A DNA stretch of 64,000 nucleotides from Anaerolineales bacterium UBA2181 (GTDB lineage Bacteria > Chloroflexota > Anaerolineae > Promineifilales > UBA4811). A model generated the notes under the pieces. It did not search any database, was not told where the DNA came from, and worked only from the letters and a program-made list of their open reading frames with translations. Made by a program: the position numbers and the translations under genes. Of the stretch, positions 8,920 through 33,940 are shown one piece after another. The DNA lies in NCBI GenBank assembly GCA_002328075.1, contig DCVT01000015.1, positions 75,971 to 139,970 on the forward strand, read 5' to 3'. Positions within the stretch are counted from its first letter, which is position 1; each line of letters begins with the position of its first letter.

Positions 8920-11900
8920 TGGATCACCCAGATCGCGTGATCGAACCGGCAGCGCAACCGCAGCCTGTAGGAGCTGTCATGGTTGTGGGTGCGGGTATTG
9001 GTGGCATCCAGGCCTCGCTGGACCTGGCAGAAACCGGCTACAAGGTCTATCTGGTGGAGAGCCGGTCTGCCATCGGCGGGCGAATGGCGCAGTTGGATAA
9101 GACGTTTCCCACCAACGATTGTGCGATGTGCATTGTCAGCCCCAAGTTGGTGGATGCCGGTCGTCACCTCAACATTGAGTTGATGACCGATACGGACGTG
9201 ATGGATGTGTCCGGACCCCCGGGCGATATGTCCGTACGGTTGGTCCGAAAACCCCGGTATGTGGACCTGACCAAGTGCGTCGGCTGCGGCGATTGTGCGG
9301 ACGTGTGTCCGGTGGTCTTGCCCGACAAGTTCAACGAGGGCCTTGCCCTGCGTCGCGCTGCATTCAGGCTCTATCCGCAGGCCGTGCCCAACGCCTATGC
9401 CGTTGAGAAGCTGGGCATTGCCCCCTGCCGTGATGCCTGCCCCACCGGTCAACGCGCGCAGGGCTATATCGCGCTGATCCGCGAGGGCCGCTTTCATGAT
9501 GCGTTGCGCGTGATCAAAGAGGACAACCCGTTCCCCGGGATCTGCGGGCGAATCTGCAACCACCGATGTGAGACCGCCTGCAACCGCGGTAAACTGGACG
9601 AGCCCGTCAATATCCGGGCGCTCAAGCGGTTCGTGACCGACAAGGTGTATGCCGAACCGCGCGCTCCCGTGGCGCCGGCTGAGGTCAAATACGCGGAGCG
9701 GGTGGCGATCATCGGCGCCGGACCATGTGGACTCACCGCGGCACAGGACCTGGCCAAGACCGGATACCTAGTCACGGTCGTGGAGGCCCTGCCGGTAGCC
9801 GGCGGCATGCTGCGGGTCGGGGTGCCCGAGTATCGCCTGCCGACCGCCATTATCGAACGTGAGGTTCAGGATGTACTGGATCTGGGGGTCAAGCTGCGCC
9901 TGAACACCACGGTGGAGAACCTGGACGATCTCTTTGCCGAGGGGTTCCAGGCAGTCCTCATTGCCGTGGGTGCCCACGAGGGTATTCGCCTCGCTGTGCC
10001 TGGGGCTAACCTCGATGGCGTTCTGATCAACACCAGTTTCCTGCGCGACGTCCGGTTGGGTAATCCGCCGAAATTGGGAAAACGAACGGCGGTCATTGGT
10101 GCAGGCGATGTCGCCATGGACGTAGCCCGCACAGCCCTCCGGCTGGGCGCGCAGGTGGATCTCTACTATCGCCGCCTGCGCGAGGAAGCCACTGCCGACG
10201 ACGAAGAGATGACGCACGCCGAGGAAGAAGGCGCTGCATTCCACTGGCAGACCACGCCGATTGAGGTCATGGGTGAGGCGGGCCGCGTGGTCGGGCTCAA
10301 GATGGTGCGCACCGAACAGGGCTTACCCGACGAGACCGGCCGGCGGCGACCGGTGCTGGTCCCGGGATCCGAGCGCGTCGTACCCTGCGAGAATGTCATC
10401 TTTTCGGTCGGGCAGCGGGCCGGCCTGGCATTCATCCCCGAGAGCGTCGGCGTGGGGGTCACTAACCAGGCCACTGTGGCTGTCAATCCCCATACGCTGG
10501 CGGCCAGCCGACCCGGTGTCTTTGCTGCCGGTGACGTCACCACCGGCACCGCCTTTGTCATTGAGGCAGTGCAGGCGGGTCATCAGGCGGCCGAATCCAT
10601 ACATCGTTACATCCGTGGCAAGGAATTAGAGTCGCCACCCAAGCCCAAACTGCCGGTGGTGGAACTGGTCCGGGCAGACATCGACGAACGCGTGGCGCGT
10701 GGCGAGGTCAAACCCCAGCCGCGAGTGCCGATGGACCGGCTGCCGCCCACTGATCGCCGCGGGTCGTTTGACGAGGTGGTGGCAGGTTACACGGATGAGA
10801 AGGCACAGGCCGAAGCCGCGCGGTGTCTGGCCTGTGGGGTCTGTTCTGAATGCCTGAGTTGCCAGTACACCTGCCAGGCAGACGCCATCGTGCACGATGC
10901 GACGGCACGCACCGAGTCCGTCCAGGTTGGCGCGATGATTTTGGCACCCGGATTCGAGCCATTTGCGGCTAACCGGTTGCAGGAGTATGGGTTTGGTCGC
11001 TACCACAACGTCGTGACATCGCTCCAGTTTGAGCGGTTGCTCAGCGCTTCCGGGCCCACCTTCGGTCACGTCAATCGGCCAGGCGACGGCCAGCCGGCCA
11101 AGAGGATTGCCTTTCTGCAGTGCATCGGATCTCGCGATGCGGACCACGATTACTGTTCCTCGGTTTGCTGCATGTATGCAACCAAAGAGGCGATCATGGC
11201 TATCGAACATGATCGCGAGACCGAGGCGCACATCTTTATGATGGATATGCGCTCCTTTAGCAAGGGGTATGACGAGTACTATCGCCGGGCCCGGGACAAA
11301 TGCGGGGTGCGCTATACACGGTGCCGCGTATCAGCCGTACGCGAGAACCGCGCGAATGGCAACCTTATCATCCGGTACGTTTCAGAGGACGCACCCGAGC
11401 CGGAGCGGCTCTCTTTGGTCAGCGAAAAGGAGTTCGACCTGGTGGTGCTCTCGGTGGGCATGGAGGTCGCCGCGAGCGCCCGAGAACTGACCCGCCGGCT
11501 TGGAGTTGACCTGGACCGATCCGGGTTCTGTCGAACAGAGATGTTGGAGCCGTTGCAGACCTCGCATCCGGGCGTGTTTGTTGTCGGTCCATTCCGCGAA
11601 CCCAAGGATATTCCAGAGACGGTGGTCGAAGCCAGCGGAGCTGCAGGCGCGGTTGCCGGTTTGCTACAGGGTGGTCGTTGGACTCTCACCCGGGAAAAGG
11701 AATACCCACCGGCGCGCCGGGTGGATGATGAAGAGCCGCGAGTCGGGGTTTTTGTCTGCCACTGCGGATCTAACATAGGCGGCTATCTGGATGTTCCAGC
11801 GGTCACCGAGTACGCAGCTACCCTCCCTTCGGTGGCGCATGCAGAGAACAACCTGTATACGTGTTCGCAAGATTCGATTGCTCGTATCAGCCAACGGGTG

Positions 11901-13481
11901 CAGGAATTGGGGCTCAACCGGGTGGTCGTGGCAGCCTGCACGCCGTTGACGCACGAGCCCCTGTTCCAGGACAGCCTGCGATCGGCCGGGTTGAATCCCT
12001 ATCTGTTTGACATGGCCAACATCCGCAACCAGTGCTCCTGGGTACACGGCGATGACTGGGATGCGGGTACGGGCAAGGCCAAGGACCTGGTGCGGATGGC
12101 GGTCGCCCGGGCGTCGCTGTTGGAGCCCCTCAGCAAGACGGTCGTGCCAGTGCAGAAACGGGCGCTGGTGATCGGCGGCGGCCCGGCCGGGATGCACGCC
12201 TCCCTGGCGTTGGCCAAGCAGGGGATTGCTGTGACCCTGGTAGAGCGCGAGGCTGAGCTGGGTGGCAACCTCCGCCGACTGCGGTATCTGGCGGACGTGC
12301 AGCACAGCGAGCAGCCAGTTGCGTTGATCGACGCCCGCGCGTATCTGAACGACCTGGTCCGCGAGGTGACGACGGACCCGCTCATCGAAGTACGTGTGCA
12401 CACCCAACTGGTGAGCAGCGGCGGTTTCAAGGGCAACTTCCGATCCGTGCTGCGGTCACCAGACAGCCAGACTGAGATTGAGCACGGTGCCACGATCATC
12501 GCCACGGGTGGGCAAGAACACCGAGGGCCAGAGTATCGACACGGGGCCGATCCCAGGATCATGACCCTGTTCGATTTCGAGGCGCGTCTGGCGGATTGGG
12601 AGGATGGCCCTCTGCCGGAAAGGCCAGAGTTGCCGGGGTCGGTGGTGGTCATTCTCTGTGCAGGCAGCCCGGCTGATCGGTACTGCAGTCGTGTCTGTTG
12701 TGCTGCCGCCCTCAAGAATATTCTGGCACTGAAGCAACTGAACCCGGACGTGCAGGTAACCGTGTTCTATCGGGACATACGCACGTTTGGCTTCAAGGAG
12801 CGGCTGTACACCGAGGCGCGCCGTCAACGGGTGCTGTTTGTGCGCTATGACGATGATCGTCGGCCGGTAGTGGACCTGCCAGCGGACGGTAAGGATCTCA
12901 CCGTGACCGGTCGGGAGCCTGTACTGAAGCAGGATCTGGTTCTCTACCCCGATCTGGTGGTACTGGCTATGCCGATGGTGCCAGCAGGCGAGGCCGGCGA
13001 AATGGCACGCACCCTCAAAGCGGGGCAGGACCTGGACGGCTGGATTATGGAGGCGCACGTCAAGCTCAGGCCGGTGGATCTGGCTACCGAAGGCCTGTAT
13101 GTAGCCGGCTGCGCACATTATCCCAAGTTCGTGGAAGAGGTCATCGCCCAGGCACAAGCCGCGGCTGGTCGCGCCATGACAGTGCTCAGCCGAGATTGGC
13201 TCGAGGTCGGGGGTGTTGTCGCCAAGGTTGACTCTGCGCTTTGCGTGGGTTGCCTGACCTGTGTTCGGATCTGTCCTTTCAACGTCCCCACTATCGATCC
13301 GCACCTTGCGGGGGTCGGCGGCATCGCGGGAGCGGCGGTCATCGAGCCGGCCCTCTGCCAGGGTTGTGGAATCTGTGTGGGAGAGTGTCCTGCCAAGGCA
13401 ATCCGGCTGCAGCACTATCAGGACGAACAGCTCAGGGCCAAGATAGCAACTTTCTGGCCAGCAGAGCCAGTGCCAGCCTGA
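8916..13481 (+). CDS. hdrA: Second giant HdrA-GltD-HdrA fusion flavoprotein (1521 aa), paralog of 1952..6523
   Basis: It is colinear with the first fusion and carries the same motif series (FPTNDCAMC, GICGRICNHRCETACNRG, VAIIGAGPCGLTAAQDL, FLQCIGSRD..YCSSVCCMY, VFVCHCGSNIGG, YCSRVCCAAAL, C-terminal 2x CxxCxxCxxxCP). The start overlaps the response regulator stop as ATGA. Confidence 0.85.
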   Translation: MMDHPDRVIEPAAQPQPVGAVMVVGAGIGGIQASLDLAETGYKVYLVESRSAIGGRMAQLDKTFPTNDCAMCIVSPKLVDAGRHLNIELMTDTDVMDVSGPPGDMSVRLVRKPRYVDLTKCVGCGDCADVCPVVLPDKFNEGLALRRAAFRLYPQAVPNAYAVEKLGIAPCRDACPTGQRAQGYIALIREGRFHDALRVIKEDNPFPGICGRICNHRCETACNRGKLDEPVNIRALKRFVTDKVYAEPRAPVAPAEVKYAERVAIIGAGPCGLTAAQDLAKTGYLVTVVEALPVAGGMLRVGVPEYRLPTAIIEREVQDVLDLGVKLRLNTTVENLDDLFAEGFQAVLIAVGAHEGIRLAVPGANLDGVLINTSFLRDVRLGNPPKLGKRTAVIGAGDVAMDVARTALRLGAQVDLYYRRLREEATADDEEMTHAEEEGAAFHWQTTPIEVMGEAGRVVGLKMVRTEQGLPDETGRRRPVLVPGSERVVPCENVIFSVGQRAGLAFIPESVGVGVTNQATVAVNPHTLAASRPGVFAAGDVTTGTAFVIEAVQAGHQAAESIHRYIRGKELESPPKPKLPVVELVRADIDERVARGEVKPQPRVPMDRLPPTDRRGSFDEVVAGYTDEKAQAEAARCLACGVCSECLSCQYTCQADAIVHDATARTESVQVGAMILAPGFEPFAANRLQEYGFGRYHNVVTSLQFERLLSASGPTFGHVNRPGDGQPAKRIAFLQCIGSRDADHDYCSSVCCMYATKEAIMAIEHDRETEAHIFMMDMRSFSKGYDEYYRRARDKCGVRYTRCRVSAVRENRANGNLIIRYVSEDAPEPERLSLVSEKEFDLVVLSVGMEVAASARELTRRLGVDLDRSGFCRTEMLEPLQTSHPGVFVVGPFREPKDIPETVVEASGAAGAVAGLLQGGRWTLTREKEYPPARRVDDEEPRVGVFVCHCGSNIGGYLDVPAVTEYAATLPSVAHAENNLYTCSQDSIARISQRVQELGLNRVVVAACTPLTHEPLFQDSLRSAGLNPYLFDMANIRNQCSWVHGDDWDAGTGKAKDLVRMAVARASLLEPLSKTVVPVQKRALVIGGGPAGMHASLALAKQGIAVTLVEREAELGGNLRRLRYLADVQHSEQPVALIDARAYLNDLVREVTTDPLIEVRVHTQLVSSGGFKGNFRSVLRSPDSQTEIEHGATIIATGGQEHRGPEYRHGADPRIMTLFDFEARLADWEDGPLPERPELPGSVVVILCAGSPADRYCSRVCCAAALKNILALKQLNPDVQVTVFYRDIRTFGFKERLYTEARRQRVLFVRYDDDRRPVVDLPADGKDLTVTGREPVLKQDLVLYPDLVVLAMPMVPAGEAGEMARTLKAGQDLDGWIMEAHVKLRPVDLATEGLYVAGCAHYPKFVEEVIAQAQAAAGRAMTVLSRDWLEVGGVVAKVDSALCVGCLTCVRICPFNVPTIDPHLAGVGGIAGAAVIEPALCQGCGICVGECPAKAIRLQHYQDEQLRAKIATFWPAEPVPA

Positions 13482-14567: not shown

Positions 14568-14622
14568 AGGAGCATGCTGCCTCGATTTGGCACTCTGCCT
14601 TTTTCAAGAGAGAGGTTTCAAT

Positions 14623-15372
14623 ATGATCGTAGGGGAACAAAAACCGCTGGAAGAGATAAAGGGGTTTCTGGATGGCAGTCAAAAAGTGCTGGTCGTTGGT
14701 TGCGGCACCTGTGTGACTGTCTGTTTTGCCGGAGGCGAAAAGGAGGCACAGATCTTGGCGGCCTCGCTCCGGATGAGCACTGCCCTCACTGGTGCACCCA
14801 AGGAGGTCACCGATGTCACCGTGCAGCGCCAGTGCGAATGGGAATACCTGGACCTGATAAAAAACGAGGTTCAGGAGGCAGACATCATCGTGTCCATCGC
14901 TTGCGGAATCGGCGTGCAGGCAATGGCCAAGCACTTTCCGGACAAATGGGTGGTGCCAGGGCTGAACACGACGTTTCTGGGGCTGCCCGAGGAACAGGGT
15001 ATTTGGACCGAGCAATGCCAGGCATGCGGAAACTGCATTCTGGCCCTCACTGGCGGGATCTGTCCCATAGCTCGATGCTCGAAGCAGCTGCTCAATGGAC
15101 CCTGCGGCGGTTCGGAGAAGGGGCTTTGCGAGGTCAAGCGAATAAAGCGGGAGCACGGGCTGCCCGTCATGCAGACAGATGCTCGCGGCCGAAAAACCCC
15201 CGTGATCGAGGATGTGGACTGTGCCTGGCACCTGATCCACGAGCGCCTAAAGGCGTTGGGCAAGCTGGATATGCTCACGCAAATACAACCACCCAAAGAT
15301 TGGTCTACGGCAAGGGATGGCGGTCCTCGGCGGATTGTCCGTGAGGACCTCATGTTGTTGGATGAGGGATAA
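14623..15372 (+). CDS. metV: MetV-type methylene-THF reductase accessory subunit (MTHFR C-terminal-like, Cys-rich)
   Basis: Cys clusters VVGCGTCVTVCFAGG, CQACGNCIL, GICPIARCSK..NGPCGG. It lies immediately upstream of metF, the arrangement seen in acetogen metVF clusters. ATG 14623 has an upstream AGAGAGG. Confidence 0.75.
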   Translation: MIVGEQKPLEEIKGFLDGSQKVLVVGCGTCVTVCFAGGEKEAQILAASLRMSTALTGAPKEVTDVTVQRQCEWEYLDLIKNEVQEADIIVSIACGIGVQAMAKHFPDKWVVPGLNTTFLGLPEEQGIWTEQCQACGNCILALTGGICPIARCSKQLLNGPCGGSEKGLCEVKRIKREHGLPVMQTDARGRKTPVIEDVDCAWHLIHERLKALGKLDMLTQIQPPKDWSTARDGGPRRIVREDLMLLDEG

Positions 15373-15373
15373 C

Positions 15374-16360
15374 ATGTCGGCACAGGATTCAAATGGCTAC
15401 AAATCTGGCGGGAATCTGGAAAAGGTACTGCGGGGAGGTTACTTTGCGGTAACCGGGGAGCTGGGTCCGCCGCAGAACGCCGACGGCGACCACATTCGGA
15501 AGAAGGCATCCCACCTGCGCGGAGTGGTGGATGCGGTCAACATCACGGACAACCAGACTGCGGTCGTGCGCATGTCCTCTCTGGGAGCGGCATTCGTGGC
15601 GATCCAGGAGGGCCTAGAACCGGTCATGCAGATGACCTGTCGTGACCGGAACCGGCTGGCTATGCAGGCCGATTTCCTGAGTGCGTACGCATCTGGTGTG
15701 CGCAACATGCTGGCGTTGACGGGTGACCATCAATCGTTTGGAAACCACCCTACGGCCAAGAACGTTCATGACATTGACTCGCTCCAACTGATTCGCATGC
15801 TGCGGGATCTCCGGGATGAGAAAAAGTTCGAGTGTGGTGAGGCGATCAAAGGACAAGAACCCCGGTTTTTCATCGGCGCGGCTGCCGCTCCAGAAGCGGG
15901 TCCGACCGAATACCGACCATACCGCCTGGCAAAGAAGGTGGAGGCTGGGGCGGACTTTGTGCAGACCCAACTGGTGTACAATGTGGAGGCATTTAAAAAG
16001 TTCATGGAGGTGGTCCGGCAACTCGGGCTGCACGAGAAGCTATTCATCTTGGTCGGTGTCGGGCCACTCAAGGGCCCGGCCATGGCACGGTACATGCGCG
16101 ATTTCGTGCCGGGAATCACCATGCCGGACCACATCATTGAGCGGATGGAGAACGCAGCGGCGAATATTCCCAAGGAAGAAAAGAACGCCCGTAACCAGGC
16201 CTGGCGAGACGAGGGGATCAAGGTCTGCATCGAGATCATCCAGCAGGTGCGTGATATTGAGGGCGTGGCCGGCGTGCACGTGATGGCCATCGAGTGGGAA
16301 GAGGCGGTAAGGCCGATTGTGGATGGAGCTGGCCTGTTGCCCCGGCCGGCGGTGGACTAG
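15374..16360 (+). CDS. metF: 5,10-methylenetetrahydrofolate reductase
   Basis: MetF motifs are present (AVNITDN, MQMTCRDRNR, NMLALTGD, FFIGAAAAPE, GADFVQTQLVYN). It starts 1 nt after the metV stop. Confidence 0.85.
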   Translation: MSAQDSNGYKSGGNLEKVLRGGYFAVTGELGPPQNADGDHIRKKASHLRGVVDAVNITDNQTAVVRMSSLGAAFVAIQEGLEPVMQMTCRDRNRLAMQADFLSAYASGVRNMLALTGDHQSFGNHPTAKNVHDIDSLQLIRMLRDLRDEKKFECGEAIKGQEPRFFIGAAAAPEAGPTEYRPYRLAKKVEAGADFVQTQLVYNVEAFKKFMEVVRQLGLHEKLFILVGVGPLKGPAMARYMRDFVPGITMPDHIIERMENAAANIPKEEKNARNQAWRDEGIKVCIEIIQQVRDIEGVAGVHVMAIEWEEAVRPIVDGAGLLPRPAVD

Positions 16361-16431
16361 ATGACGAGCATCCAGTGGATGAGGGCTTGCCCCTCAAGCG
16401 CTGCACTCGTCGCTACCAGTGAGGCGACGCA

Positions 16432-17847
16432 ATGACTGTTGAGATCAAAGCAGATCTGGCCCGGATCATCGAAAAGAAAACCGGGCAGAACGCGTTTCTT
16501 TGTTACCAGTGCATCCGCTGTACCAGCGGTTGTCCGCTGACCGATTTTTTTGACTATACTCCGAACGAGATCATGCGCCTGGTGCAGATCGGGGACGAGG
16601 AAACGGTCCTCAACGCCAAGACACCCTGGCTTTGTGCTGCCTGCCTGACCTGTTCGACCCGTTGCCCTCAGGGGCTAGACATTGCGCGCATCATGGAGGC
16701 TCTGACTCAGGTGGCACTGGAGCGGGGCATCAAACCCAAGGTGCCCGAGGTGGCGCTCTTTAACAAGGTGTTCCTCGCCGATGCCAACATCTTTGGCCGG
16801 GTCTACGAGCTGGGCCTCATGGGTTCCATGAATGTCCTCAACACAGTGAGGACGATGGAGCCCAAACGGATGCTCGCCGACATGGACCTGGGTCTGGAGA
16901 TGTTCAAACGAGCCAAGATCCCGGTGATTCCGGGCTTTGTGCGAACCCGTCTGGACAAGGTGGAGGTTCGGCACCCAACGGAAAGGCAGGTGGGCTACTT
17001 TCCCGGCTGTTCGTTGCATGCCATGGCCAGGGAGTTTGACCTTTCCTTTAAAGCGGTTGCCGAGGTGCTGGACGTGGAACCGGTCGAACCGGAGGGATGG
17101 ACCTGTTGCGGCTCCAGCCCGGCTCACCACGTTGACCATTACTTGGGCGTCAGATCGCCCATGCTGAACCTCGCGCTGATTGAAAAGAGCGGGTTTCATG
17201 AGGTTGTTGCGCCCTGTGCGGCCTGTTTCAATCGCTTTCGCACCGCGCTCCATGAGATACGAGAGGATGATGCGCTGCGGTCGCGCGTCGATAATGATCT
17301 CGGCTACCGTTACCAGGACAAGGTTGACGTCCGCTCGATCTCGGAATGGTTGGCGAACGAGATCGGCGTCGAGGCCGTCAAGGCCAAGGTCACCAAACCG
17401 TTACAAGGGCTCAAGGTGGTTAGCTACTATGGCTGTCTGTTGACTCGGCCGCCGCACATCACCGGCCATCCCAACCACGAATACCCGATGGACCTTGACC
17501 TGGTTTGCGGAGCGTTGGGCGCCGAGAGCTTGGACTGGGACGACAAAACCATCTGTTGCGGTGGCAGCCTGGCAGTCCCTGCCAAAGAAGTCATGCTCAA
17601 GCTTAGCCAAGACATCGTTGAGCAGGCACAGGCCGTGGGTGCAGATGCTATTGTGGTTGCCTGTCCCCTGTGCCAATCCAACCTGGACGGCCGCCAGATT
17701 CAAATGACTACGCTGGAGCGCCGAACACCGATAATCTACGTCACCCAGTTGATGGCGCTGGCCTTTGGATTGGGCGAAAAGGGCACGGTGTTCAAACGAA
17801 ATGTGGTTGATCCGCGGCCTCTGTTGCAGGAAAAGGGGTTACTTTAG
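16432..17847 (+). CDS. hdrCB: Fused HdrC/HdrB-like heterodisulfide reductase subunit
   Basis: The N-terminus has 2x[4Fe-4S] motifs (CYQCIRCTSGCP, CAACLTCSTRCP). Two CCG domains follow (GCSLH..WTCCGSS..PCAACFN and YYGCLL..ICCGGSL..ACPLCQSN). Confidence 0.8.
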   Translation: MTVEIKADLARIIEKKTGQNAFLCYQCIRCTSGCPLTDFFDYTPNEIMRLVQIGDEETVLNAKTPWLCAACLTCSTRCPQGLDIARIMEALTQVALERGIKPKVPEVALFNKVFLADANIFGRVYELGLMGSMNVLNTVRTMEPKRMLADMDLGLEMFKRAKIPVIPGFVRTRLDKVEVRHPTERQVGYFPGCSLHAMAREFDLSFKAVAEVLDVEPVEPEGWTCCGSSPAHHVDHYLGVRSPMLNLALIEKSGFHEVVAPCAACFNRFRTALHEIREDDALRSRVDNDLGYRYQDKVDVRSISEWLANEIGVEAVKAKVTKPLQGLKVVSYYGCLLTRPPHITGHPNHEYPMDLDLVCGALGAESLDWDDKTICCGGSLAVPAKEVMLKLSQDIVEQAQAVGADAIVVACPLCQSNLDGRQIQMTTLERRTPIIYVTQLMALAFGLGEKGTVFKRNVVDPRPLLQEKGLL

Positions 17848-17915: not shown

Positions 17916-18701
17916 ATGAAAATCCTGATATTCTCGGACCTCCATGCTCATTGGGAGGCGCTGTTTTGGATGCAGCGGGTGGAGTCCAAACCCGATGCGG
18001 TCCTGTTTGTGGGCGACATTGTGGGTTTTGGGCCGGATCCGGTGCTGTGCACCCAATGGATCCGCGCCAATTCCACTGCGGCGGTTCAGGGAAACCATGA
18101 TTATGGGGTGGCCAACAACGTCTGCGGCGGGATCCCAATTGAGGTCCATGACCTGGCTCTGGCAACCCATTCTCATGCCTGGAAGGTCCTTCCCAAAGCG
18201 GAGATGGACTATCTGCGGAACATGCCGCAGCAGGCAACCGTCACCCTGGGCGGGGCGCGATTTCACCTGGTTCACGGAACCCCGGTGGAGCCCATGTATG
18301 GCGTAGCGAATCTACTTTTCTCGCGTCAGGATCACCTCCGGTCACTTTTGGCGGACACGCCGGCCGAGACGGCTGACGTGGTGCTGATGGCCAATACCCA
18401 TGTTCCGGCGATACGACAGCTAGATCGAAAACTATTGGTCAACCCGGGCAGTCTGGGCCAGCCGCGGTACGGCGTGCCAGATCCGACCTACGCTATCTGG
18501 GAGGACGGCAATGTGCGTATCCGGCACTTGCACATCTCTCACGATCAGACCATCGCCAAGATTGGTCTCTTGCCGTTGGAACCTTCCATCATCCAACGGC
18601 TGCAGGAGATCTTGATGACGGGACATCTGGTATTGCCAAAGGGGATGACAGTCGAGGAACTCAAGCGCAAACACGAGATGGCACACGGCGCGTATTGGTA
18701 G
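17916..18701 (+). CDS. Calcineurin-like metallophosphoesterase
   Basis: Motifs SDLHAH, VGDIVGFGPDP, GNHD and the HLVHGTP..NTH series. Confidence 0.75.
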   Translation: MKILIFSDLHAHWEALFWMQRVESKPDAVLFVGDIVGFGPDPVLCTQWIRANSTAAVQGNHDYGVANNVCGGIPIEVHDLALATHSHAWKVLPKAEMDYLRNMPQQATVTLGGARFHLVHGTPVEPMYGVANLLFSRQDHLRSLLADTPAETADVVLMANTHVPAIRQLDRKLLVNPGSLGQPRYGVPDPTYAIWEDGNVRIRHLHISHDQTIAKIGLLPLEPSIIQRLQEILMTGHLVLPKGMTVEELKRKHEMAHGAYW

Positions 18702-18723: not shown

Positions 18724-19404
18724 ATGTTGGTTAGTGACCTGATGACACCCAATCCTGTAACAGTCCTACCCGGGGTTTCGGTGGCAGCAGCGGCGGAAAC
18801 GATGGAGAAGCGTGGGATCCGGCACCTTCCGGTGGTGGATGAGCGTGGTGCGCTTGTTGGCCTGGTGACCAGGCCGACGCTTGCCCGGGCTTTGCCGGGT
18901 ACTGGAACCCATCTGACCCGGTTCGAGTACAATTACTTGATGGCATCGACGCAAGTGGGCGAGGTCATGATATCTGAGCCGGCCTGCATCGCGCCGGATT
19001 CAGCCGCCGAGGAGGCGGCGCGCATCATGAACGCCAAACGGATCAGCAGCCTGCTGGTGGTGCACGAAGGACAGCTTAATGGGATCATTACCGACACGGA
19101 TATCTTTGGCGCCCTGTTGGTTCTCATGGGTGCCCGCCGGCCGGGGGTCCGGTTGACCGTTCATATCCTGGACCGTGCCGGACAAATGGCCAAGGTCACG
19201 TCCGCTATCGCAGAACGGGGCGGTAATCTATCCGCGGTAGGCGGCTGGTATCTGAAAGACCGGCCGGAGATTTACGGTGCGATCCTCAAGGTGGAGAATC
19301 TCACCAAGGAGCAGGCAGTGGCTGCCATAAGTAACCTGGCCGATGTGAGGGTGGTGGATGTTCGTGGAGAGGAGGTTTTCCACCAACAGAACGTGGCCAG
19401 GTAA
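18724..19404 (+). CDS. CBS-pair plus ACT domain protein (AcuB-like)
   Basis: There are two CBS repeats (MTPNPVTV..GIRHLPVVDERGALVGLVT; MISEPACI..RISSLLVVHEGQLNGIITDTD). The C-terminus is an ACT-like segment. Confidence 0.7.
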   Translation: MLVSDLMTPNPVTVLPGVSVAAAAETMEKRGIRHLPVVDERGALVGLVTRPTLARALPGTGTHLTRFEYNYLMASTQVGEVMISEPACIAPDSAAEEAARIMNAKRISSLLVVHEGQLNGIITDTDIFGALLVLMGARRPGVRLTVHILDRAGQMAKVTSAIAERGGNLSAVGGWYLKDRPEIYGAILKVENLTKEQAVAAISNLADVRVVDVRGEEVFHQQNVAR

Positions 19405-19465
19405 TTGCCGGTGCGTACAAGGCTCTGATCGGGCCGGCACCGTCGGGTCCAAGACGCAAGGAGGT

Positions 19466-20902
19466 ATGATGCCCGTCAAGGTACCTTGGATGAAAGGGGT
19501 TTTTCCAGCGCTGGTGACTCCCTTTTTCCGCAAAACGGAAGAGGTGGACGAAGCAGCCTACCGGAGACTCATTCGGCATTGTCTGCCGCAGGTCAACGGT
19601 TTGGTGACCAGCGGCACGACCGGTGAGTTCAACTATCTCTCAAGGCAGGAACAGCAGCGATTGGTGGAGATCGCCGTGGAAGAGGCCAACGGGAAGCCGG
19701 TAGTCGCTGGGTGTGGCGCCGAGGGCACAGCCGGGGCTATTGCGCTGGCCAAGGATGCTGCGCAAGCGGGTGCAACCGGAATTCTGGTGGTCACTCCCTA
19801 TTTCATGCACCCCTCGGACAAGGGCGTCTTTCAGCATTTCCACGACATTGCTCGGGCGGTGGACATCCCGATGATTCTCTACAACATACCCCAGGTGGTA
19901 GACCGATACCTGCCCCGCCCGGTGGTGGAGGATTTGGCGGATCTGCCTACCGTGGTTGGCATCAAGGATTCGTCAGGCGATCTGACCTACACCATGGAGC
20001 TGCTGGAGTATGTTGGCGACCGAATCGACGTGTTCGTGGGACATGATGAGGTAGTGCTGCCCGCCCTGGCAGGCGGCGTCAGCGGAATGATCTTGGCCAG
20101 CGCCCAGGTTTTTCCAGAAGTCTGGCAGGCAGTGCTGCGCCTGGCCGCGGAGGGGAACTTGGCCGCTGCTCGGCGGGCGCAGATGCAGGTGCAAAAACTC
20201 TCGCGCATCTTCTGCCGGCATGGAGGGGGCGTCGCCGTCAAAGCAGCGCTCAAGATGATGGAATTGGACATGGGGCCACCCCGCCGTCCGCTCAAGGATG
20301 CTGGCGGTGCGCTGCTGCACGAGACACGGGCAGAGATCCAGCTAGAGCTGGAAAGGTTGGGCAAGATCGCATCGGGCGTATCGGCGGTGACCTACCCAAC
20401 CGGGCCGCTTGTTGACCGTTTCGCTGATCTGGAAATCACGGCCGAGATCATCGCAACGCACGAATTGCGCACCGGCAGCGGTAGTGCAGGCGACGGACTG
20501 CACCAAGTGCAAATTGACCTTGTCGCTGGACGGAAAAGCGGTCCGTTGGGAGATGCGTACGCGCTGCAGTTGACCTATCCGCTGCACGGCCGCGAAGCAC
20601 TGACCGCCATCCTGGAACCTAACCTCACGGTTCGGCCATCGACGCTGATCCTTCCGACACTGCCGCAAAAGAACCTGCGGCAGGCGAACATGATTTACGG
20701 CCCGACCCAACTGGGGGTGGCTCGCGCTATCGTGGATTTGCTGCAGTTGGGGTTGATTGGACCAGACTCGGTGCAGAATGACGTTATGGTGGCCTTGGCT
20801 ACGCTTCATCCCAAGGCGCTGGACCGGCGTGCTCTGTACCATGCCGCCTATCAGGCAGCGCGTGGCGCGGTGCAGCAGGCCTTCACCCAGGAGGTGAGAT
20901 AA
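19466..20902 (+). CDS. DHDPS/NAL-family class I aldolase fused to a formaldehyde-activating-enzyme (Fae)-like C-terminal domain
   Basis: The N-terminal ~300 aa have GTTGEF, LYNIPQ and a Schiff-base Lys context GIKDSSGD. The C-terminal ~150 aa resemble Fae (GDGLHQVQIDLVAGRKSGP, LEPNL..RPSTLILP, MIYGPTQLGVARAIVDL). An AAGGAGG RBS sits just upstream, and ATG 19469 is an alternative start. Confidence 0.65.
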   Translation: MMPVKVPWMKGVFPALVTPFFRKTEEVDEAAYRRLIRHCLPQVNGLVTSGTTGEFNYLSRQEQQRLVEIAVEEANGKPVVAGCGAEGTAGAIALAKDAAQAGATGILVVTPYFMHPSDKGVFQHFHDIARAVDIPMILYNIPQVVDRYLPRPVVEDLADLPTVVGIKDSSGDLTYTMELLEYVGDRIDVFVGHDEVVLPALAGGVSGMILASAQVFPEVWQAVLRLAAEGNLAAARRAQMQVQKLSRIFCRHGGGVAVKAALKMMELDMGPPRRPLKDAGGALLHETRAEIQLELERLGKIASGVSAVTYPTGPLVDRFADLEITAEIIATHELRTGSGSAGDGLHQVQIDLVAGRKSGPLGDAYALQLTYPLHGREALTAILEPNLTVRPSTLILPTLPQKNLRQANMIYGPTQLGVARAIVDLLQLGLIGPDSVQNDVMVALATLHPKALDRRALYHAAYQAARGAVQQAFTQEVR

Positions 20903-22380
20903 TGGGGTACAAAACCGAATGGCTGCAAGGCATCTTTCCGGCCCTGGTGACCCCGTTTGACCATCATGACCGTTTTGATGAGGAGGCATACCGTCGACTC
21001 ATCCGCTGGGTGCTGCCCTATGTGAATGGCGTGGTGCCGGCAGGTACGACCGGTGAGTTTTGTTATCTCACGCCGGCCGAACGGCTGCGAGTCATAGAGG
21101 TGGCAGTCGATGAGGTAGGCGGTCAGGTGCCGGTAGTCGCCGGTACCGGGGCTGCTTCTACGCGTCAAACGGTAGAGCTCACGCGTCAGGCACAACTGGC
21201 AGGGGCTGCTGCAGCTCTGGTGGTTGCGCCGTACTATCTGAAACCTTCGTTCAACGAGGTGTACGACCATTTCCGACAGGTCGATGCTGTTGGTTTGCCC
21301 TTAGTCCTCTACAACCTGCCCCAGTGCGCCGGAACGCATTTTCGCTGGTGGACGGCAGAGGGAATGTTATTGGACCTGGAAAACGTGATCGGTATCAAGG
21401 ATACGTCCGGTGACATGTCGTTCATGGCCGCTCTGTTTGAGAAGGTGCGGGGCAAGGTGAGCATCTTTACCGGGCATGACGAGGTGGCGCTGGCAGCGTT
21501 TGCCAGCGGCGCCGATGGCGCCATTCTGGCCAGCGCCAACCTGATTCCAGACGTCTGGCAACGCATCTTGCAGGCGGTGCGATCGGGTGATCTGGCCGCT
21601 GCTCAGGCTGATCAGGAGCGCATTCAGAAACTGGTGCGGATCGTCACCCAAACCGCCGGGTCGCAGGCCGTCAAGGAGGCGCTCACGGCGATGGGTCTGC
21701 CCATGGGAGAATCGCGCCATCCGATTGTTCGCGGAGATGCGTTCAAGCGCGAAGATTATGAAGAACTCCGGCTTCAGTTGGAGGTGCCTGGGATAGACAA
21801 GATCATCCGTCAACCCGTCACCTATGACCTCAGCTCAAGAACGGTGCGCACGGCCGTATTCTCGACGCCGCAGACGCCCAACTTGGTGGACGGCTGGGAG
21901 ATGAAGGTGGGCGAAGGATTTGCCGGGCCGCCCTTCCAGGAGTTGGCTCACGTGGACCTTTTGATCGGCCGGAAGGACGGGCCAGTTGGCCGGGCTGTGG
22001 AGCGCTCATTGGCCGGGTGGGGTGAGGCCCGGGGTCTGAGAATCATCAATGACCGGCCGCGCACGCTGCTGGTCCCAACTGTCACCCTGCGGTCTGCTCG
22101 AAGCAGAGAACTATTCTACGATCATGCGGCTCGGGGAGTGAATTTGGCCATCAACCTGAGCCAGCAGGATGGCTTTCTGCCGGAGGAACTGCTGGACGAT
22201 ATTGTGATAATCGCCAACGTTTTTGTCCATCCATCGGCCTGCATTGCCATGAGGGTCTTTGGCAACAATTACAAGGCCACCCGGCATGCTATCCGCAAGG
22301 CCATCGAGGGCCGGCCGACGACTGAGGAACTGATAGCCGAAAAGGATGCGGCGCGGCACCCATTTCGGTACGCACCGTAG
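20902..22380 (+). CDS. Second DHDPS-family::Fae-like fusion protein (tandem paralog)
   Basis: It has GTTGEF, LYNLPQ and GIKDTSGD. The C-terminus is Fae-like (ELAHVDLLIGRKDGPVG, RPRTLLVPTV, IIANVFVHPSA). It overlaps the upstream gene as TAATG. Confidence 0.65.
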   Translation: MGYKTEWLQGIFPALVTPFDHHDRFDEEAYRRLIRWVLPYVNGVVPAGTTGEFCYLTPAERLRVIEVAVDEVGGQVPVVAGTGAASTRQTVELTRQAQLAGAAAALVVAPYYLKPSFNEVYDHFRQVDAVGLPLVLYNLPQCAGTHFRWWTAEGMLLDLENVIGIKDTSGDMSFMAALFEKVRGKVSIFTGHDEVALAAFASGADGAILASANLIPDVWQRILQAVRSGDLAAAQADQERIQKLVRIVTQTAGSQAVKEALTAMGLPMGESRHPIVRGDAFKREDYEELRLQLEVPGIDKIIRQPVTYDLSSRTVRTAVFSTPQTPNLVDGWEMKVGEGFAGPPFQELAHVDLLIGRKDGPVGRAVERSLAGWGEARGLRIINDRPRTLLVPTVTLRSARSRELFYDHAARGVNLAINLSQQDGFLPEELLDDIVIIANVFVHPSACIAMRVFGNNYKATRHAIRKAIEGRPTTEELIAEKDAARHPFRYAP

Positions 22381-22433: not shown

Positions 22434-23744
22434 CTATTGGCTGGCCAGAAGCGCCTCGAGATCGGCATAACTCTTTAACGCGGCCACGCTCTCCAGGAAC
22501 GCCTGCAGCGATGGGCTCTTTTGGCGCAAGGCGACCACCGCTGGACCAACTGGGTCCTCACCCTGTTCGCCAGGCTCGTCCGCATATGCACCGTAGAATG
22601 CAAAGTAGGCTTGATTGAGTTTGCGGATCTGGTAACCGTTCGCCCAAAATACCTGGCGCCGGGCTTCCATGTGACTTTCTGCCTCGGCAATACGACCCTC
22701 TTCCAGCAGTGCGTCCACCGTCAGGCGGGTCTGGCGCATCTCGGCTCGGAAATCAAAGGCCGGCGGAGCGGCGTTGAGGTTTGACGCCGCGGCTCCGGTC
22801 TGCGTGAGCGGCGGAATTCGCTCGGGGTAGAACCGGAGCAGAGCTTGGGCACCGATCTCATTACCGACGATACTGGCAGTTGTCTCATTCATGGTGCGCA
22901 ACTCGGGGTTGGCATCGTATCGAATTCCAAGCGGCCGGAGGGTGAGGTAGTGGTGCGTCCACTCATGAGCCGCGGTGTTCAAGACCCAATCCAGCGCAGT
23001 CGATTCGAACAACATGGCAGGGTAGGCTCCCAGACCGCCGATGTTGACGACCAGCGACGAGACCCCCAATTGCTGATCTACTGCGGTTTCTATAGCCAGT
23101 CGATCGGCCTCATCCAGCCCATGCACCAAAGGCACGAAGCGGACGGCCTCTATTCGGTCGCGCGGGGAGACAACCAGCATGGCGGGCAACGGGGTGAAGT
23201 GCAGCTGCACCGGCGGGAAGACCCGGCCGGCCCACGTCAGACCGGTATCCGCCAGAACGGCTGCGACCTGCTCCTGAATGATGCCCTCGGCCATGGGCTG
23301 CACAGCGGCCAAACCACGGCGCGCCTCTTGTAGAATGAGCACCATGTCCGCTGCTGCGCGTTCGGGCGCGCCCACCGATGGGTCCGCATACACGGCAGCC
23401 ACCTGCGCCTCTAGCCTTTGCACGGAGCTCAACTGCTCCGTCCAATCCACGACGATCCGTTTCTGCAGTTCCGTATCCACATAGGTATGAGGTGGTGCAA
23501 GGGCGTATCGCGCCTTGGAGGAAAGCGTCAACAGCTCCCAACTCACAAAGTCAAAGCGGCGGTTGCGGAAAATAGAATCATAGACCGCATCGTCTCCGAC
23601 CCGGCCCGATCGCTCGCCCGGAAGGGCGATGACAAACGCGCAGACCAAGGCTAACCAGAGAATTCGGACCGATGATCGGCCCAGGTCTCCGGAGCGGCCG
23701 GCGGCACGCAGCATCGTCGTGCCGGCTGACACCCCGAGGATCAC
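22434..23744 (-). CDS. Membrane-anchored hypothetical protein with HExxH motif (putative Zn metalloprotease)
   Basis: It has an N-terminal hydrophobic anchor (ILWLALVCAFVIAL) and AAHEWTHHY. I recognise no further family. Confidence 0.4.
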   Translation of the reverse strand: MILGVSAGTTMLRAAGRSGDLGRSSVRILWLALVCAFVIALPGERSGRVGDDAVYDSIFRNRRFDFVSWELLTLSSKARYALAPPHTYVDTELQKRIVVDWTEQLSSVQRLEAQVAAVYADPSVGAPERAAADMVLILQEARRGLAAVQPMAEGIIQEQVAAVLADTGLTWAGRVFPPVQLHFTPLPAMLVVSPRDRIEAVRFVPLVHGLDEADRLAIETAVDQQLGVSSLVVNIGGLGAYPAMLFESTALDWVLNTAAHEWTHHYLTLRPLGIRYDANPELRTMNETTASIVGNEIGAQALLRFYPERIPPLTQTGAAASNLNAAPPAFDFRAEMRQTRLTVDALLEEGRIAEAESHMEARRQVFWANGYQIRKLNQAYFAFYGAYADEPGEQGEDPVGPAVVALRQKSPSLQAFLESVAALKSYADLEALLASQ

Positions 23745-26566: not shown

Positions 26567-27931
26567 ATGACGCAACAGCGATTCTTATTGCACGAACACG
26601 AGCTGCCCACGCACTGGTACAACATCATTGCGGACATGACCAACCCGCCGCCGCCATACCTGCACCCGGCCACCCTCCAACCATTGAGCCCGGAGGACCT
26701 GGCGCCGATCTTCCCGGCTGAGCTTATCCGACAGGAAGGAAGCAGCGAAAGATGGATCGAGATTCCGGATGAGGTGCGCCATCTCCTTCAGATGTGGAGG
26801 CCAACTCCTCTTTGCCGAGCGCTCCGCTGGGAAAAGGCGCTGGATACGCCGGCCCGAATCTATTACAAATGGGAGGGCGCTTCGCCTCCCGGTAGCCACA
26901 AACCCAATACCGCCGTAGCCCAGTGTTACTACGCGCGGAAGGAGGGGTTGCGCGGGTTCGCCACGGAGACAGGCGCGGGCCAATGGGGGAGTGCCCTCTG
27001 TTTCGCTGCCCAGTTCTTTGGCCTAGAGTGCCGCGTTTTCATGGTTACCAGCAGCTATCACCAGAAACCATACCGGCGGGTGGCCATGGAGACCTGGGGC
27101 GGCTCTGTAGTCCCGAGCCCGAGCAGCATGACCCAGGCTGGACGGGCGATCCTGGCGCGTGATCCCGAGACCAGCGGCAGCCTGGGAATGGCCATAAGTG
27201 AGGCCATCGAATACGCGGTCACCCACGAGGGGTTCAAGTACTCGTTGGGCAGCGTGGTCAACTTTGTTCTGTTGCATCAGACGGTCATTGGGTTGGAAGC
27301 TCAGAAACAGCTAGAGATGGCTGGGGACTATCCGGATATCGTGATTGCGTGCGCGGGCGGCGGTAGCAATGCGGCCGGCCTGATGTTTCCTTTCCTTAAG
27401 GAAAAGCTCAACGGCTCCCGGCCGAACCTGCGGGCGCTCTTTGTGGAATCGACTGCCTGCCCCAGCATGACGCGCGGGCTGTATGCCTACGATTGGGGCG
27501 ATACGGCCAAGACGGGGCCTGTGGCCAAAATGCGGACGGTAGGTCACGGGTTTGTCCCAGCGCCGGTGCACGCCGGCGGCCTTCGGTACCACGGGATGGC
27601 TCCCAGCATCTGCACCCTGTTGGAGCAGGGTTTTGCCGAAGCCCGTGCTTACCAGCAGAACGGCTGCTTTGACGTGGCGGTTGGATTTGCCCGCGCCGAA
27701 GGGCTCATTGTGGCGCCCGAGACTGCCCATGCGCTGCGCGCAGCATACGACGAGGCGCTAGCCTGCCGGGAGTCGGGTGAATCCAAGGTGATCCTGCTGA
27801 ACGCAAGCGGACATGGGCATTTTGACCTGGCAGCATACGACTCGTACCTACAGGGGGCTCTGCCCGACCATGACCTGGAGGAGGACCAGATTCGGCGGGC
27901 TTTGCTGGAACTGCCAACGGTTGCGGGTTAG
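26567..27931 (+). CDS. trpB: TrpB2-type tryptophan synthase beta-like PLP enzyme
   Basis: It has the long TrpB2 form (454 aa), the PLP-lysine context [10 protein letters not shown], and [16 protein letters not shown] serves as the RBS. Confidence 0.85.
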
Positions 27932-31458: not shown

Positions 31459-32157
31459 ATGACTGATGATACCGGCCGATACGATGTCACGCGGTACCAG
31501 CGCCCGTCGGTGACTGTTGACGTAGTCATATTCACGCTCTGTAACCAGGAGCTGCAAGTGCTGCTCATTCAACGGGCGCGGTGGCCATATGAAGGTTGCT
31601 GGGCGCTTCCTGGTGGTTTTGTTGAGATAGATGAGCCGCTGGAGAGGGCAGCTGTCCGTGAGCTGGAAGAGGAAACCGGCGTGACCGACGTCTATCTGGA
31701 ACAGCTATTCACGTTTGGCCGGACGGATCGGGACCCGCGCAGCCGCGTCATCACGGTGGCGTACCTGGCTTTGGTGGCAGCCGAGCGCATCCGGCCGCGT
31801 GCTGGTGATGATGCAACCGATGCCCGTTGGTGGTCGACGTACGCCTTGCCCGCGCTGGCGTTCGACCACAGGCAGATTCTGGATTATGCGCTTACCCGTC
31901 TGCGCTACAAATTGGAATACACGGCGGTCGGTTTTGAATTGTTGCCCCAAGAGTTCACCCTGGCTGAGCTGCAGGGGACGTATGAGATCATCGTGGGGGA
32001 GACACTGGACAAGGCCAACTTTCGGAAGAAGCTTACCCGGGCCAATGTGATCGAGCCCACAGGTCAATTTCGCCAAACCGCCGGCCGGCCTGCGCGCCTT
32101 TACCGCTATCGCGAAGATGCTGTGGCGGAGGTCAAAGCACGCCGACTTTTTCCTTGA
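31459..32157 (+). CDS. nrtR: Nudix-domain transcriptional regulator, NrtR-like
   Basis: It has a Nudix box (GGFVEIDEPLERAAVRELEEETGV) plus a C-terminal winged-helix-like segment (FTLAELQGTYEIIVGETLDKANFRKKL). It lies directly upstream of NAD salvage genes. Confidence 0.65.
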   Translation: MTDDTGRYDVTRYQRPSVTVDVVIFTLCNQELQVLLIQRARWPYEGCWALPGGFVEIDEPLERAAVRELEEETGVTDVYLEQLFTFGRTDRDPRSRVITVAYLALVAAERIRPRAGDDATDARWWSTYALPALAFDHRQILDYALTRLRYKLEYTAVGFELLPQEFTLAELQGTYEIIVGETLDKANFRKKLTRANVIEPTGQFRQTAGRPARLYRYREDAVAEVKARRLFP

Positions 32158-32179
32158 GCTGACCCCACCAGGCAGATCG

Positions 32180-32207
32180 TTGACAACCCGAATCCGGGCG
32201 TTATACT
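32180..32207 (+). promoter_or_regulatory. Possible promoter for the NAD salvage genes
   Basis: TTGACA (32180-85), a 16-nt spacer, then TATACT (32202-07). Confidence 0.4.
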
Positions 32208-32277
32208 TTTGGTAGTTGGTACATTAAATACTGCCGGGATAGCACAGCGCCAACAGCGCCTAATTGAGGAGCCAAGG

Positions 32278-32991
32278 ATGGATACGGTGACGCTGATCAA
32301 CAAGAGCCGACCGTTCCTGGAGTGGGTGGTGGGCTGGTACAACGGATTGGTTCGCCTGCCACTGACAGAAGTAGTGGTTAAACCAGAGCGGACGGTGGTA
32401 CTTGCGGTTGATGTGTTGCGTGGTTTCTGTTATGAGGGTCCGCTCTCCAGCCCGCGTGTCGCGGCAATTGTGCCTCCCATTGTGCGCCTGTTCCGGGCGG
32501 CGTATGACCTGGGTGTTCGGTCGTTTGTTCTGCCGCAGGAAGCGCATCCGGCCGATGCCATCGAATTTGATAGCTATGGGCCCCATTGTATTGCTGGCAC
32601 GCGAGAGGCCGAGACCGTACCCGAATTGTTGGAGCTGAGTTTTGCCGACCTGTTTGTGGTGGTGCCCAAGAACTCGGTGAACCCGTTTATGGAGACCGGT
32701 TTGGGTGACTGGCTGGATGCTCACCCGGAACTCGACACCTATATTGTTGTCGGTGATTGCACCGACATCTGCACCTATCAACTGGCCATCAACCTGCGGC
32801 TGCGAGCCAATGCCAGGCAGCGAGCCGGGGTGCGGGTCATCGTGCCGGCGGACGCAGCGGACACGTACGACCTGCCGGTTCCCGTGGCGGCGCAACTCGG
32901 TGCGGTGCCGCATGACGGTGATCTCTTGCATCTGCTCTTTATGTATCATCTCATGCTGAATGGCGTACAGGTGGTGGCCGGGTTTGAATAG
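32278..32991 (+). CDS. pncA: Isochorismatase-family cysteine hydrolase, candidate nicotinamidase
   Basis: LAVDVLRGF and IVVGDCTDICT are isochorismatase-like motifs. It sits between nrtR and nadE/pncB. ATG 32278 is preceded by GAGGAG. Confidence 0.6.
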   Translation: MDTVTLINKSRPFLEWVVGWYNGLVRLPLTEVVVKPERTVVLAVDVLRGFCYEGPLSSPRVAAIVPPIVRLFRAAYDLGVRSFVLPQEAHPADAIEFDSYGPHCIAGTREAETVPELLELSFADLFVVVPKNSVNPFMETGLGDWLDAHPELDTYIVVGDCTDICTYQLAINLRLRANARQRAGVRVIVPADAADTYDLPVPVAAQLGAVPHDGDLLHLLFMYHLMLNGVQVVAGFE

Positions 32992-33004
32992 GCCTTGCCA
33001 TATT

Positions 33005-33796: not shown

Positions 33797-33940
33797 CACG
33801 GAAACCGGCGGGTCCGCGCATCAGGCGGCGAGTATCATGGAATTGGTCTGGCCTGGAGCCACCGGCGAAAAGCGCCTGGTGCGCTGAGGGCAGACGCGGC
33901 ACTGGATCCGTGGCCAAAGAAGAAATCTGATGGGAGTGGA

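Follow-up and report, generated by a model that had tools for sequence, protein, structure and literature searches.

What reaction is carried out by a protein that joins a class I aldolase to a formaldehyde-activating enzyme (Fae), and why should such a protein be encoded twice, by adjacent genes? The question is raised by a locus of Anaerolineales bacterium UBA2181 (Chloroflexota), located in a stretch of 64,000 nucleotides of contig DCVT01000015.1 (assembly GCA_002328075.1, positions 75,971 to 139,970), which is called the window here and to whose first letter all coordinates refer. Two tandem genes of the window encode fusions of a dihydrodipicolinate synthase (DHDPS) family aldolase with a Fae-like domain. 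Their products, termed subunits A and B, are proposed, with about equal measures of confidence and doubt, to form a heteromer acting as a pterin-dependent 2-oxoacid hydroxymethyltransferase, which would be a class I aldolase analogue of PanB. Both belong to the DHDPS superfamily and subunit B also to the Fae family; they are not classed as DapA, Fae-Hps or PanB proteins. No characterized enzyme and no paper with a DHDPS::Fae architecture was found in literature, family-profile and structure searches.

Subunit A (open reading frame 1, ORF1, 478 amino acids) is encoded at 19466-20902 on the forward strand, in a frame that is open from 19358. A Shine-Dalgarno sequence, GGAGG at 19460-19464, precedes two candidate starts, ATG 19466 and ATG 19469 (19460-19471 altogether), and the N-termini of homologues align at the second methionine. 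Subunit B (ORF2, 492 amino acids) follows at 20902-22380 on the same strand. At the junction (20890-20904), which reads TAATG, the last base of the ORF1 stop codon (TAA, 20900-20902) is the first base of the ORF2 start codon (ATG, 20902-20904), and a second GGAGG lies at 20890-20894 within the 3' end of ORF1, a layout typical of translational coupling. Full-length identity between the two proteins is 39%, from which it follows that the duplication is later than the fusion, and old.

The aldolase domains and the DapA label

The N-terminal domain of each subunit is a complete class I aldolase with the TIM-barrel fold. Matches to PF00701, with a cut-off of 22.1 bits, cover amino acids 10-279 of subunit A (19493-20302, forward strand; E 5e-68, 229.3 bits) and 8-283 of subunit B (20923-21750, forward strand; E 1.9e-71, 240.6 bits). 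The Schiff-base lysines are Lys167 in subunit A (19964-19966) and Lys166 in subunit B (21397-21399), accompanied by GTTGEF in both chains and by YNIPQV and YNLPQC, respectively. When 120 A-type and 120 B-type homologues were aligned to Escherichia coli DapA, these two lysines fell in the column of DapA K161, and the Schiff-base lysine, Tyr133 and Thr44/Thr45 of the GTTGE motif were retained in 99-100% of both types. The aldolase catalytic residues are likewise retained in nearly all of at least 120 genome loci carrying the fusion. The AlphaFold2 model of subunit B (predicted local distance difference test score, pLDDT, 89.0; predicted template-modelling score 0.88) has its barrel at residues 1-295 and the Fae domain at 335-485, with a linking beta-hairpin at 303-320 (21808-21861, forward strand) in between. 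The predicted barrel consists of a (beta/alpha)8 core and a C-terminal helical bundle, as in the DHDPS superfamily, and Foldseek superimposes it on DHDPS/DapA structures with a template-modelling (TM) score of 0.93 and a root-mean-square deviation of 1.9 A over about 293 columns. No solved structure spanning both domains was found by Foldseek with this model.

The fusions share with DapA and its relatives (NanA, YagE/YjhH, 2-keto-3-deoxygluconate (KDG) aldolase, HOGA1) the fold, the Schiff-base lysine, Tyr133 as the proton relay and GTTGE as the motif that binds the carboxylate. They differ from DapA in an extra linker and Fae domain of about 190 residues and in two positions of the active site. 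In DapA, Arg138 holds the carboxylate of aspartate semialdehyde, and Tyr107 is the catalytic-triad residue given across the tight dimer. Instead of Arg138, subunit A carries Val, as do 100% of A-type sequences, and subunit B Cys, as do 99% of B-type sequences; Cys, Val, Thr or Ala stand there in other lineages among the matches listed. The Tyr107 column holds Phe in subunit A and in 100% of the A-type; subunit B has Tyr, yet 69% of B-type sequences have Phe, and Tyr is found in relatives encoded by a single gene. Against the dapA equivalog profile TIGR00674 (cut-off 206.15), ORF1 scores 208.1, which is 2 bits above the cut-off, and ORF2 189.6, which is below it.

In NCBI and JGI, four A-type records homologous to ORF1 bear the name 4-hydroxy-tetrahydrodipicolinate synthase. 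Given the loss of Arg138 and the TIGR00674 scores, the DapA names in the source databases are probably wrong, and the label is likely to be a systematic misannotation. A true DapA was rejected for ORF1, ORF2 and both paralog families, from all of which Arg138 is absent. A dap operon was also considered and rejected: the neighbours of the pair in Thorarchaeota are an M20 peptidase (by Pfam) and, by eye, a sugar nucleotidyltransferase-like and an AlaX-like protein.

Fae motifs divided between two paralogs

The C-terminal domains match the Fae family profile PF08714 (cut-off 27 bits) at amino acids 340-475 of subunit A (20483-20890, forward strand; E 2.6e-30, 106 bits) and 336-488 of subunit B (21907-22365, forward strand; E 3.9e-32, 111.9 bits), and both align to the solved Fae structure 1Y5Y (E 5e-18 for subunit B and 3e-17 for subunit A). 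Against the stricter profile TIGR03126 (cut-off 118.05 bits), ORF2 scores 120.4 bits, above the cut-off, and ORF1 101.8, below it. Stand-alone Fae of methylotrophs is reportedly a homopentamer that binds methylene-tetrahydromethanopterin (methylene-H4MPT) in a cleft between adjacent subunits; His22 is said to be the acid catalyst, Gln88 to lie at the pterin, and the C-terminal arm to become ordered upon binding.

Measured against these elements, the two chains have decayed in complementary ways. In subunit A, the position of His22 is taken by Gln349 (20510-20512), as it is by Gln in 100% of A-type sequences, and the chain stops before the C-terminal arm; the YGPTQ motif with Gln415 (20708-20710), the equivalent of Gln88, and the ILEPN loop are retained, and the G, P and Q of GPxQ are present in 100% of the A-type. 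In subunit B, the equivalent of His22 is His350 (21949-21951) within ELAHVDL, a histidine present in 100% of B-type sequences. VFVHP, NNYKA (as NNYKATR) and the ARHPF arm are also retained, the last in 100% of the B-type; FGPAQ is lost (FYDHAARG), and five residues are deleted from the loop aligning to PNLPC of Fae. The domains are thus homologous to stand-alone Fae (1Y5Y/1Y60), with His22 in B and in single-gene forms and Gln88 in A and in single-gene forms, and differ from its pentamer of identical sites in that neither chain of the pair has a full site.

These results refine an earlier note made from the letters of this DNA. That note had described adjacent two-domain paralogs overlapping in TAATG, complete DHDPS domains with an aligned catalytic lysine, C-terminal domains matching Fae, and an architecture not recognizable as a characterized enzyme, all of which hold in the reading frames, the Pfam profiles, the DapA column table and the literature. 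The Fae motifs that it had listed are real, though divided, YGPTQ being confined to ORF1 and AHVDL, NNYKATR and ARHPF to ORF2. The histidine of GLHQVQIDL in ORF1 is not His22; that column holds Gln349. Its picture of two equivalent bifunctional paralogs gives way to an indicated A/B heteromer, as neither chain has a complete Fae site.

The fusion is widespread in archaea and bacteria. A survey of one-genome-per-species GTDB contigs, made with a degenerate DNA pattern for VFVHPxAxxxxRxxxNN[YF], yielded at least 120 loci, and nearly all of the matches listed, to which the following statements on distribution, form and order also refer, are DHDPS::Fae fusions of about 495 amino acids. They are mostly archaeal, from Bathyarchaeia, Promethearchaeota (Loki), Thor-, Odin-, Hod- and Hermodarchaeota, Thermoplasmata, Korarchaeota and Undinarchaeales; the bacterial loci belong to Anaerolineae and other Chloroflexota, one Spirochaetota genome and one Myxococcales (Myxococcota) genome. 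A single-gene form with all Fae motifs occurs in Bathyarchaeia, Undinarchaeales and the Loki, Odin, Hod, Hermod and Sif lineages. The tandem form, with the same split as in the window and always in the order A then B, occurs in Chloroflexota, Spirochaetota, Myxococcales, Thermoplasmata, the Thor and Kor lineages and a few Bathyarchaeia. Each paralog type numbers more than 2000 sequences, and clustering at 50% identity reduces the small Fae superfamily as a whole to 338 clusters. In a neighbour-joining tree, the bacterial and Thermoplasmata A copies form one clade, the Thorarchaeota A copies branch apart, and all B copies form one clade adjoining the single-gene forms. The pair should thus stem from one or two ancient duplications, not from many.

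The single-gene relatives keep every signature conserved in canonical Fae, namely AHIDL, FGPAQ, VF[IV]H[WP], N[YF]xA and the HPF arm, and AHIDL, FGPAQ, VFIH[WP] and HPF are common to canonical Fae, Fae-Hps and the single-gene fusions. This conservation argues that Fae chemistry has been retained. In the Fae domain, 74 columns reach at least 90% conservation across 70 single-gene forms; B alone keeps 27 of them, A alone 12, both keep 12 and neither keeps 23. By the same criterion, 66 of 122 aldolase columns are retained in both A and B, including all catalytic positions. Both are true domains that remain under selection. Rare variants have lost the GTTGE motif and the Schiff-base lysine (ALADSSG, GILDATG, GLSDASG) and still carry the Fae histidine and the C-terminal arm: both copies of one Methanomethylophilaceae locus (L114), the second, B-type copy of one Thorarchaeota locus (L076) and one further protein (P0245).

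Complementary decay of the Fae domains, a fixed gene order and overlapping stop and start codons together suggest that A and B most likely form a heteromer with one composite pterin site. A five-membered ring cannot be built by strict alternation of A and B, and the quaternary structure of such a heteromer must therefore differ from that of free Fae.

A neighbour shared with PanB and the proposed reaction

Neighbour clustering over at least 120 loci revealed an unannotated family of about 425 amino acids, here called c1, that is encoded directly upstream of the fusion with a median gap of 23 bp. It lies on the same strand as the fusion in Asgard archaea and is divergent in Bathyarchaeia. Among the matches listed, it was present within 600 bp upstream in 36 of the 44 single-gene loci with at least 1.4 kb of upstream sequence. 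In Anaerolineae, c1-A-B operons occur in three loci (L027, and L125 and L127 with c1 at 8001-9269 of each), and in a fourth (L126) c1 stands apart from the pair. A small NUDIX hydrolase is encoded directly downstream of B in Anaerolineae operons (L022, L027, L125, L127 and L128-L135) and forms cluster c7 in the metagenome set.

Family c1 has more than 8000 relatives in the databases, and those bearing a name are all hypothetical proteins. Members from Thorarchaeota and Anaerolineae are about 60% identical by eye. No match to c1 was found in Pfam, NCBIfam or the sequences of the PDB, and an hhalign comparison with the MetF encoded in the window was negative. Its AlphaFold2 model is poor (pLDDT 61.7), with an N-terminal helical domain and an alternating beta/alpha core resembling a barrel, and Foldseek returned weak generic TIM-barrel matches only (E >= 0.03, TM <= 0.25); the model suggests that c1 is probably a barrel enzyme. 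In six loci, from some Chloroflexota, Thermoplasmata, Myxococcales and Bathyarchaeia, the position of c1 is occupied by another unannotated family of about 320 amino acids, c16. The two families share a K[IL]SV[FY]xGxxNP stretch (hhalign E 8e-4, probability 24%), and c16 may be a distant relative of c1. Kinship of c16 with Peptidase_U32 was considered and set aside, as it came from one sub-threshold match (E 0.069) and the U32 signal is absent in 35 c1 members.

The bacterial c1 genes were followed in 80 metagenome loci (L128-L207), whose neighbours were clustered. The commonest neighbour is a gene of 290 codons directly upstream of c1, with a median gap of 12 bp, and its product is PanB (TIGR00222, 283.9 bits against a cut-off of 207.55; NF001452, 319.5 against 272). 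In the 39 loci that leave room on both sides of c1, PanB lies upstream in 21, the fusion pair lies downstream in 4, neither is present in 14, and none has both, against about 2 expected by chance (p ~0.04). An ELFV amino-acid dehydrogenase is encoded directly downstream of c1 in seven loci, three of them arranged PanB-c1-dehydrogenase, and is a possible source of 2-oxoisovalerate from valine.

PanB transfers a hydroxymethyl group from methylene-tetrahydrofolate (methylene-H4F) to a 2-oxoacid. Since c1 stands beside either PanB or the fusion, the latter is suggested to perform the same type of reaction, and c1 is a candidate for a new step in or near pantoate synthesis. That the aldolase sites are intact, that Fae chemistry is retained and that the fusion is permanent moreover suggests a coupling of its two activities through formaldehyde, as in Fae-Hps. 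In the proposed mechanism, A and B would be subunits of one enzyme, each contributing a working Schiff-base 2-oxoacid aldolase domain and one face of the Fae site that ancestrally lay between subunits, and the two faces would make up one composite pocket that interconverts enzyme-bound formaldehyde and methylene-tetrahydropterin. The net effect would be that a hydroxymethyl unit passes from the pterin to C3 of a 2-oxoacid or back, which is the PanB type of reaction assembled from unrelated parts. The carrier would probably be methylene-H4F in the folate-type source organism, because genes for FolD, MetF and an AcsE-like protein share its contig, and probably methylene-H4MPT in the archaeal relatives. 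Gene context favours alpha-ketoisovalerate as the acceptor, giving ketopantoate; the alternative is pyruvate, giving 4-hydroxy-2-oxobutanoate.

The earlier note had linked the aldolase to a pterin through formaldehyde, and this part is still the best reading, strengthened by the association with PanB; its self-contained single-chain form is unlikely. The conversion of pyruvate into 4-hydroxy-2-oxobutanoate, which it had put forward, survives as one option, for gene context is at least as strong for a PanB-like reaction on alpha-ketoisovalerate.

Comparison with known systems places the pair as a second type of aldolase-Fae fusion, in which the active site is split and the role is probably PanB-like. 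The precedent is archaeal Fae-Hps, in which a formaldehyde-releasing, aldolase-type enzyme is coupled to Fae. In both systems Fae, with signatures in common, is fused to an enzyme that handles formaldehyde in C-C bond chemistry, which links an aldol-type reaction to a pterin. The partner in Fae-Hps is a magnesium-dependent Hps acting on ribulose 5-phosphate, whereas here it is a Schiff-base aldolase of the DHDPS family on a 2-oxoacid; the domain order is reversed, with the aldolase at the N-terminus, and the Fae domain is of its own sequence type (VFVHP...NNYKA), in many lineages split over complementary paralogs. Against the Fae-Hps profile NF009833 (cut-off 274), ORF1 and ORF2 match the Fae part alone, with 88-89 bits, and no Hps domain was found. 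With PanB, the fusion would share the net reaction, and it shares the neighbour c1. PanB (TIGR00222), whose single domain is a metal-dependent TIM barrel, belongs to the isocitrate lyase/PEP mutase superfamily and has no kinship to the fusion in sequence or fold; the fusion would instead divide the work between a lysine-enamine aldolase and a separate Fae site. The PanB profile gave no match to ORF1 or ORF2.

The fuller form of this proposal is tentative and leans towards doubt. In it, the fusion would be a non-homologous replacement of PanB that makes ketopantoate for coenzyme A (CoA) in Asgard archaea, Bathyarchaeia and part of the Chloroflexota, with methylene-H4MPT as the donor in archaea and methylene-H4F in bacteria; c1 would be a new enzyme of the pathway, and A and B a subfunctionalized heteromer with a single composite pterin site.

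Several points weigh against a PanB-like role. The enamine donor of DHDPS-family enzymes is normally pyruvate, not a branched 2-oxoacid. The mutual exclusion of PanB and the fusion applies to the neighbourhood of c1 alone, and c1 could belong to pterin metabolism rather than to pantoate metabolism. Neither c1 nor c16 stands beside the pair in 9 of the 14 tandem loci with room, among the matches listed. A c1 profile found no member in the 64-kb window, and c1 is absent from the loci of the closest relatives as well; the gene table of the 10 kb upstream on the contig holds neither a PanB-family gene nor an unannotated gene of c1 size. The PanB hidden Markov model found no match in the window or in the loci L001-L127, and no other genes of the CoA pathway were found beside the archaeal fusions. 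Canonical Fae is reportedly specific for H4MPT, and synthesis of this carrier is not known from bacteria of these phyla. The heteromer and its composite site, finally, are deduced from sequence logic.

The rival that survives best, although it is unlikely, is that each fusion is self-contained and interconverts 4-hydroxy-2-oxobutanoate with pyruvate and formaldehyde, Fae passing methylene-H4F to the adjacent MetF and a Wood-Ljungdahl branch. The pyruvate-binding residues of DHDPS are intact, and the DHDPS-family enzymes YagE and YjhH reportedly show promiscuous activity with pyruvate and formaldehyde. Folate-type one-carbon (C1) genes do lie 3-25 kb upstream of the pair. MetV, MetF and an HdrCB-like fusion are encoded at 14574-17847 (forward strand), MetV being assigned to DUF5981 in the source table and remaining without a match in the Pfam scan made here. 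The 10 kb of the contig lying farther upstream (L208, 1-9829) encode FolD, an AcsE-like pterin methyltransferase, a CooC-like ATPase and RACo, and by their sequences these genes, together with MetV and MetF, constitute the methyl branch of a folate-type Wood-Ljungdahl pathway with Hdr/Mvh-like partners. This setting is not seen in the other loci examined, including the relatives at 78% identity. BLAST with MetF, MetV and HdrCB found no homologue near the fusion in L001-L127, and MetF and Hdr are not among the recurrent neighbours of c1 in L128-L207. A functional link to MetF/Hdr was rejected on this lack of conserved adjacency, and the suggestion of the earlier note that the Fae product feeds the MetF encoded 3 kb upstream reduces to a local adjacency, the two closest relatives having other neighbours. 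It further counts against self-contained enzymes that neither chain alone has a complete Fae site and that the conserved partner c1 otherwise pairs with PanB, not with genes of C1 oxidation or reduction.

Rather improbable is a catabolic or detoxifying role, in which the aldolase would cleave a 2-keto-3-deoxy acid to release formaldehyde, Fae would trap the latter on a pterin, and c1 would make the keto-deoxy acid, for example 2-keto-3-deoxy-tetronate from C4 sugar acids, or from homoserine. Cleavage of keto-deoxy sugar acids is established for KDG aldolase and YagE/YjhH of the DHDPS family, the Fae-Hps precedent runs in the direction of formaldehyde capture, and sugar-acid dehydratases and isomerases commonly have the TIM-barrel fold, which c1 probably shares, although its matches are weak. 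No recurrent genes for sugar-acid transport or catabolism were found in about 200 loci, and the recurrent neighbour of c1, PanB, is biosynthetic. One locus of the family is labelled Undinarchaeales, a group with a presumably reduced genome, and an anabolic core role would fit better there.

That the Fae-like domains are non-catalytic oligomerization or regulatory modules on an ordinary DHDPS-family aldolase or a true DapA is very improbable: each Fae domain of the pair does lack some canonical residues, the source names are those of DapA and ORF1 passes TIGR00674 narrowly, but what one Fae domain has lost is fixed and complements the losses of the other, nothing is missing from the single-gene forms, Arg138 is replaced in 99-100% of both families, no dap genes are adjacent, and the variants L114 and P0245, which lose the aldolase lysine yet keep the Fae motifs, are the opposite of what a scaffold predicts.

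Genomic surroundings and significance of the family

The pair of the window is preceded by two genes on the same strand. A YfcE-type metallophosphoesterase (17916-18701; Pfam, NCBIfam) has homologues of 70-72% identity directly upstream of the pair in the two closest relatives (L001 and L002, 78% identity) alone, and a CBS-CBS-ACT protein (18724-19404), predicted to sense small molecules, lies between it and subunit A and is absent from that position in the same two relatives. The opposite strand carries, just past the end of the pair (22434-23744), a gene for a protein of 436 amino acids without a family match, whose N-terminus reads as hydrophobic. It is kept at 62% identity in L001, L002 and L030 and is followed by an NAD-dependent epimerase. 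The neighbours shared with the two closest relatives are limited to the phosphoesterase, this unannotated downstream gene and the epimerase. A different pattern was noticed by eye in three related loci of Thermoplasmata and Methanomassiliicoccales (L021, L041 and L114), and in these alone: the pair adjoins lookalikes of an MtnA-type isomerase and of a class II aldolase of the MtnB/FucA type, with a possible regulator also beside it.

Farther upstream of the pair, two paralogous proteins of about 1520 amino acids, each combining HdrA-like and GltD-like flavin and Fe-S domains, are encoded at 1952-6523 and 8916-13481 (forward strand), and each of these genes is followed by a small FlpD (MvhD-like) gene on the source contig. 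Between them lie a cyclic-nucleotide-binding histidine kinase and a double-receiver response regulator (6953-8140 and 8110-8919). Further content of the window (26567-27931, 31459-35305 and 45347-61941) comprises a TrpB-like (TrpB2) pyridoxal-phosphate enzyme, a probable NAD-related cluster with an NrtR-type NUDIX regulator, a member of the isochorismatase family and a protein bearing the N-terminal domain of QRPTase, and then, in one block, Ser/Thr kinases, a PP2C phosphatase and FHA-domain proteins.

Members of the family are now annotated as DapA, or counted as fae for detoxification in metabolic reconstructions; a survey of Bathyarchaeia, for instance, counts fae simply as formaldehyde detoxification (PMC10321748). 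Either label would distort the reconstruction of lysine synthesis and C1 metabolism in these lineages. The A/B pair is a clear natural example of the division of an inter-subunit active site between two paralogs. If the proposed reaction is true, the family would represent a new natural way of joining a carrier-bound C1 unit to a 2-oxoacid, and would bear on the biosynthesis of CoA in archaea as well as on engineered formaldehyde assimilation, which now relies on promiscuous aldolases.

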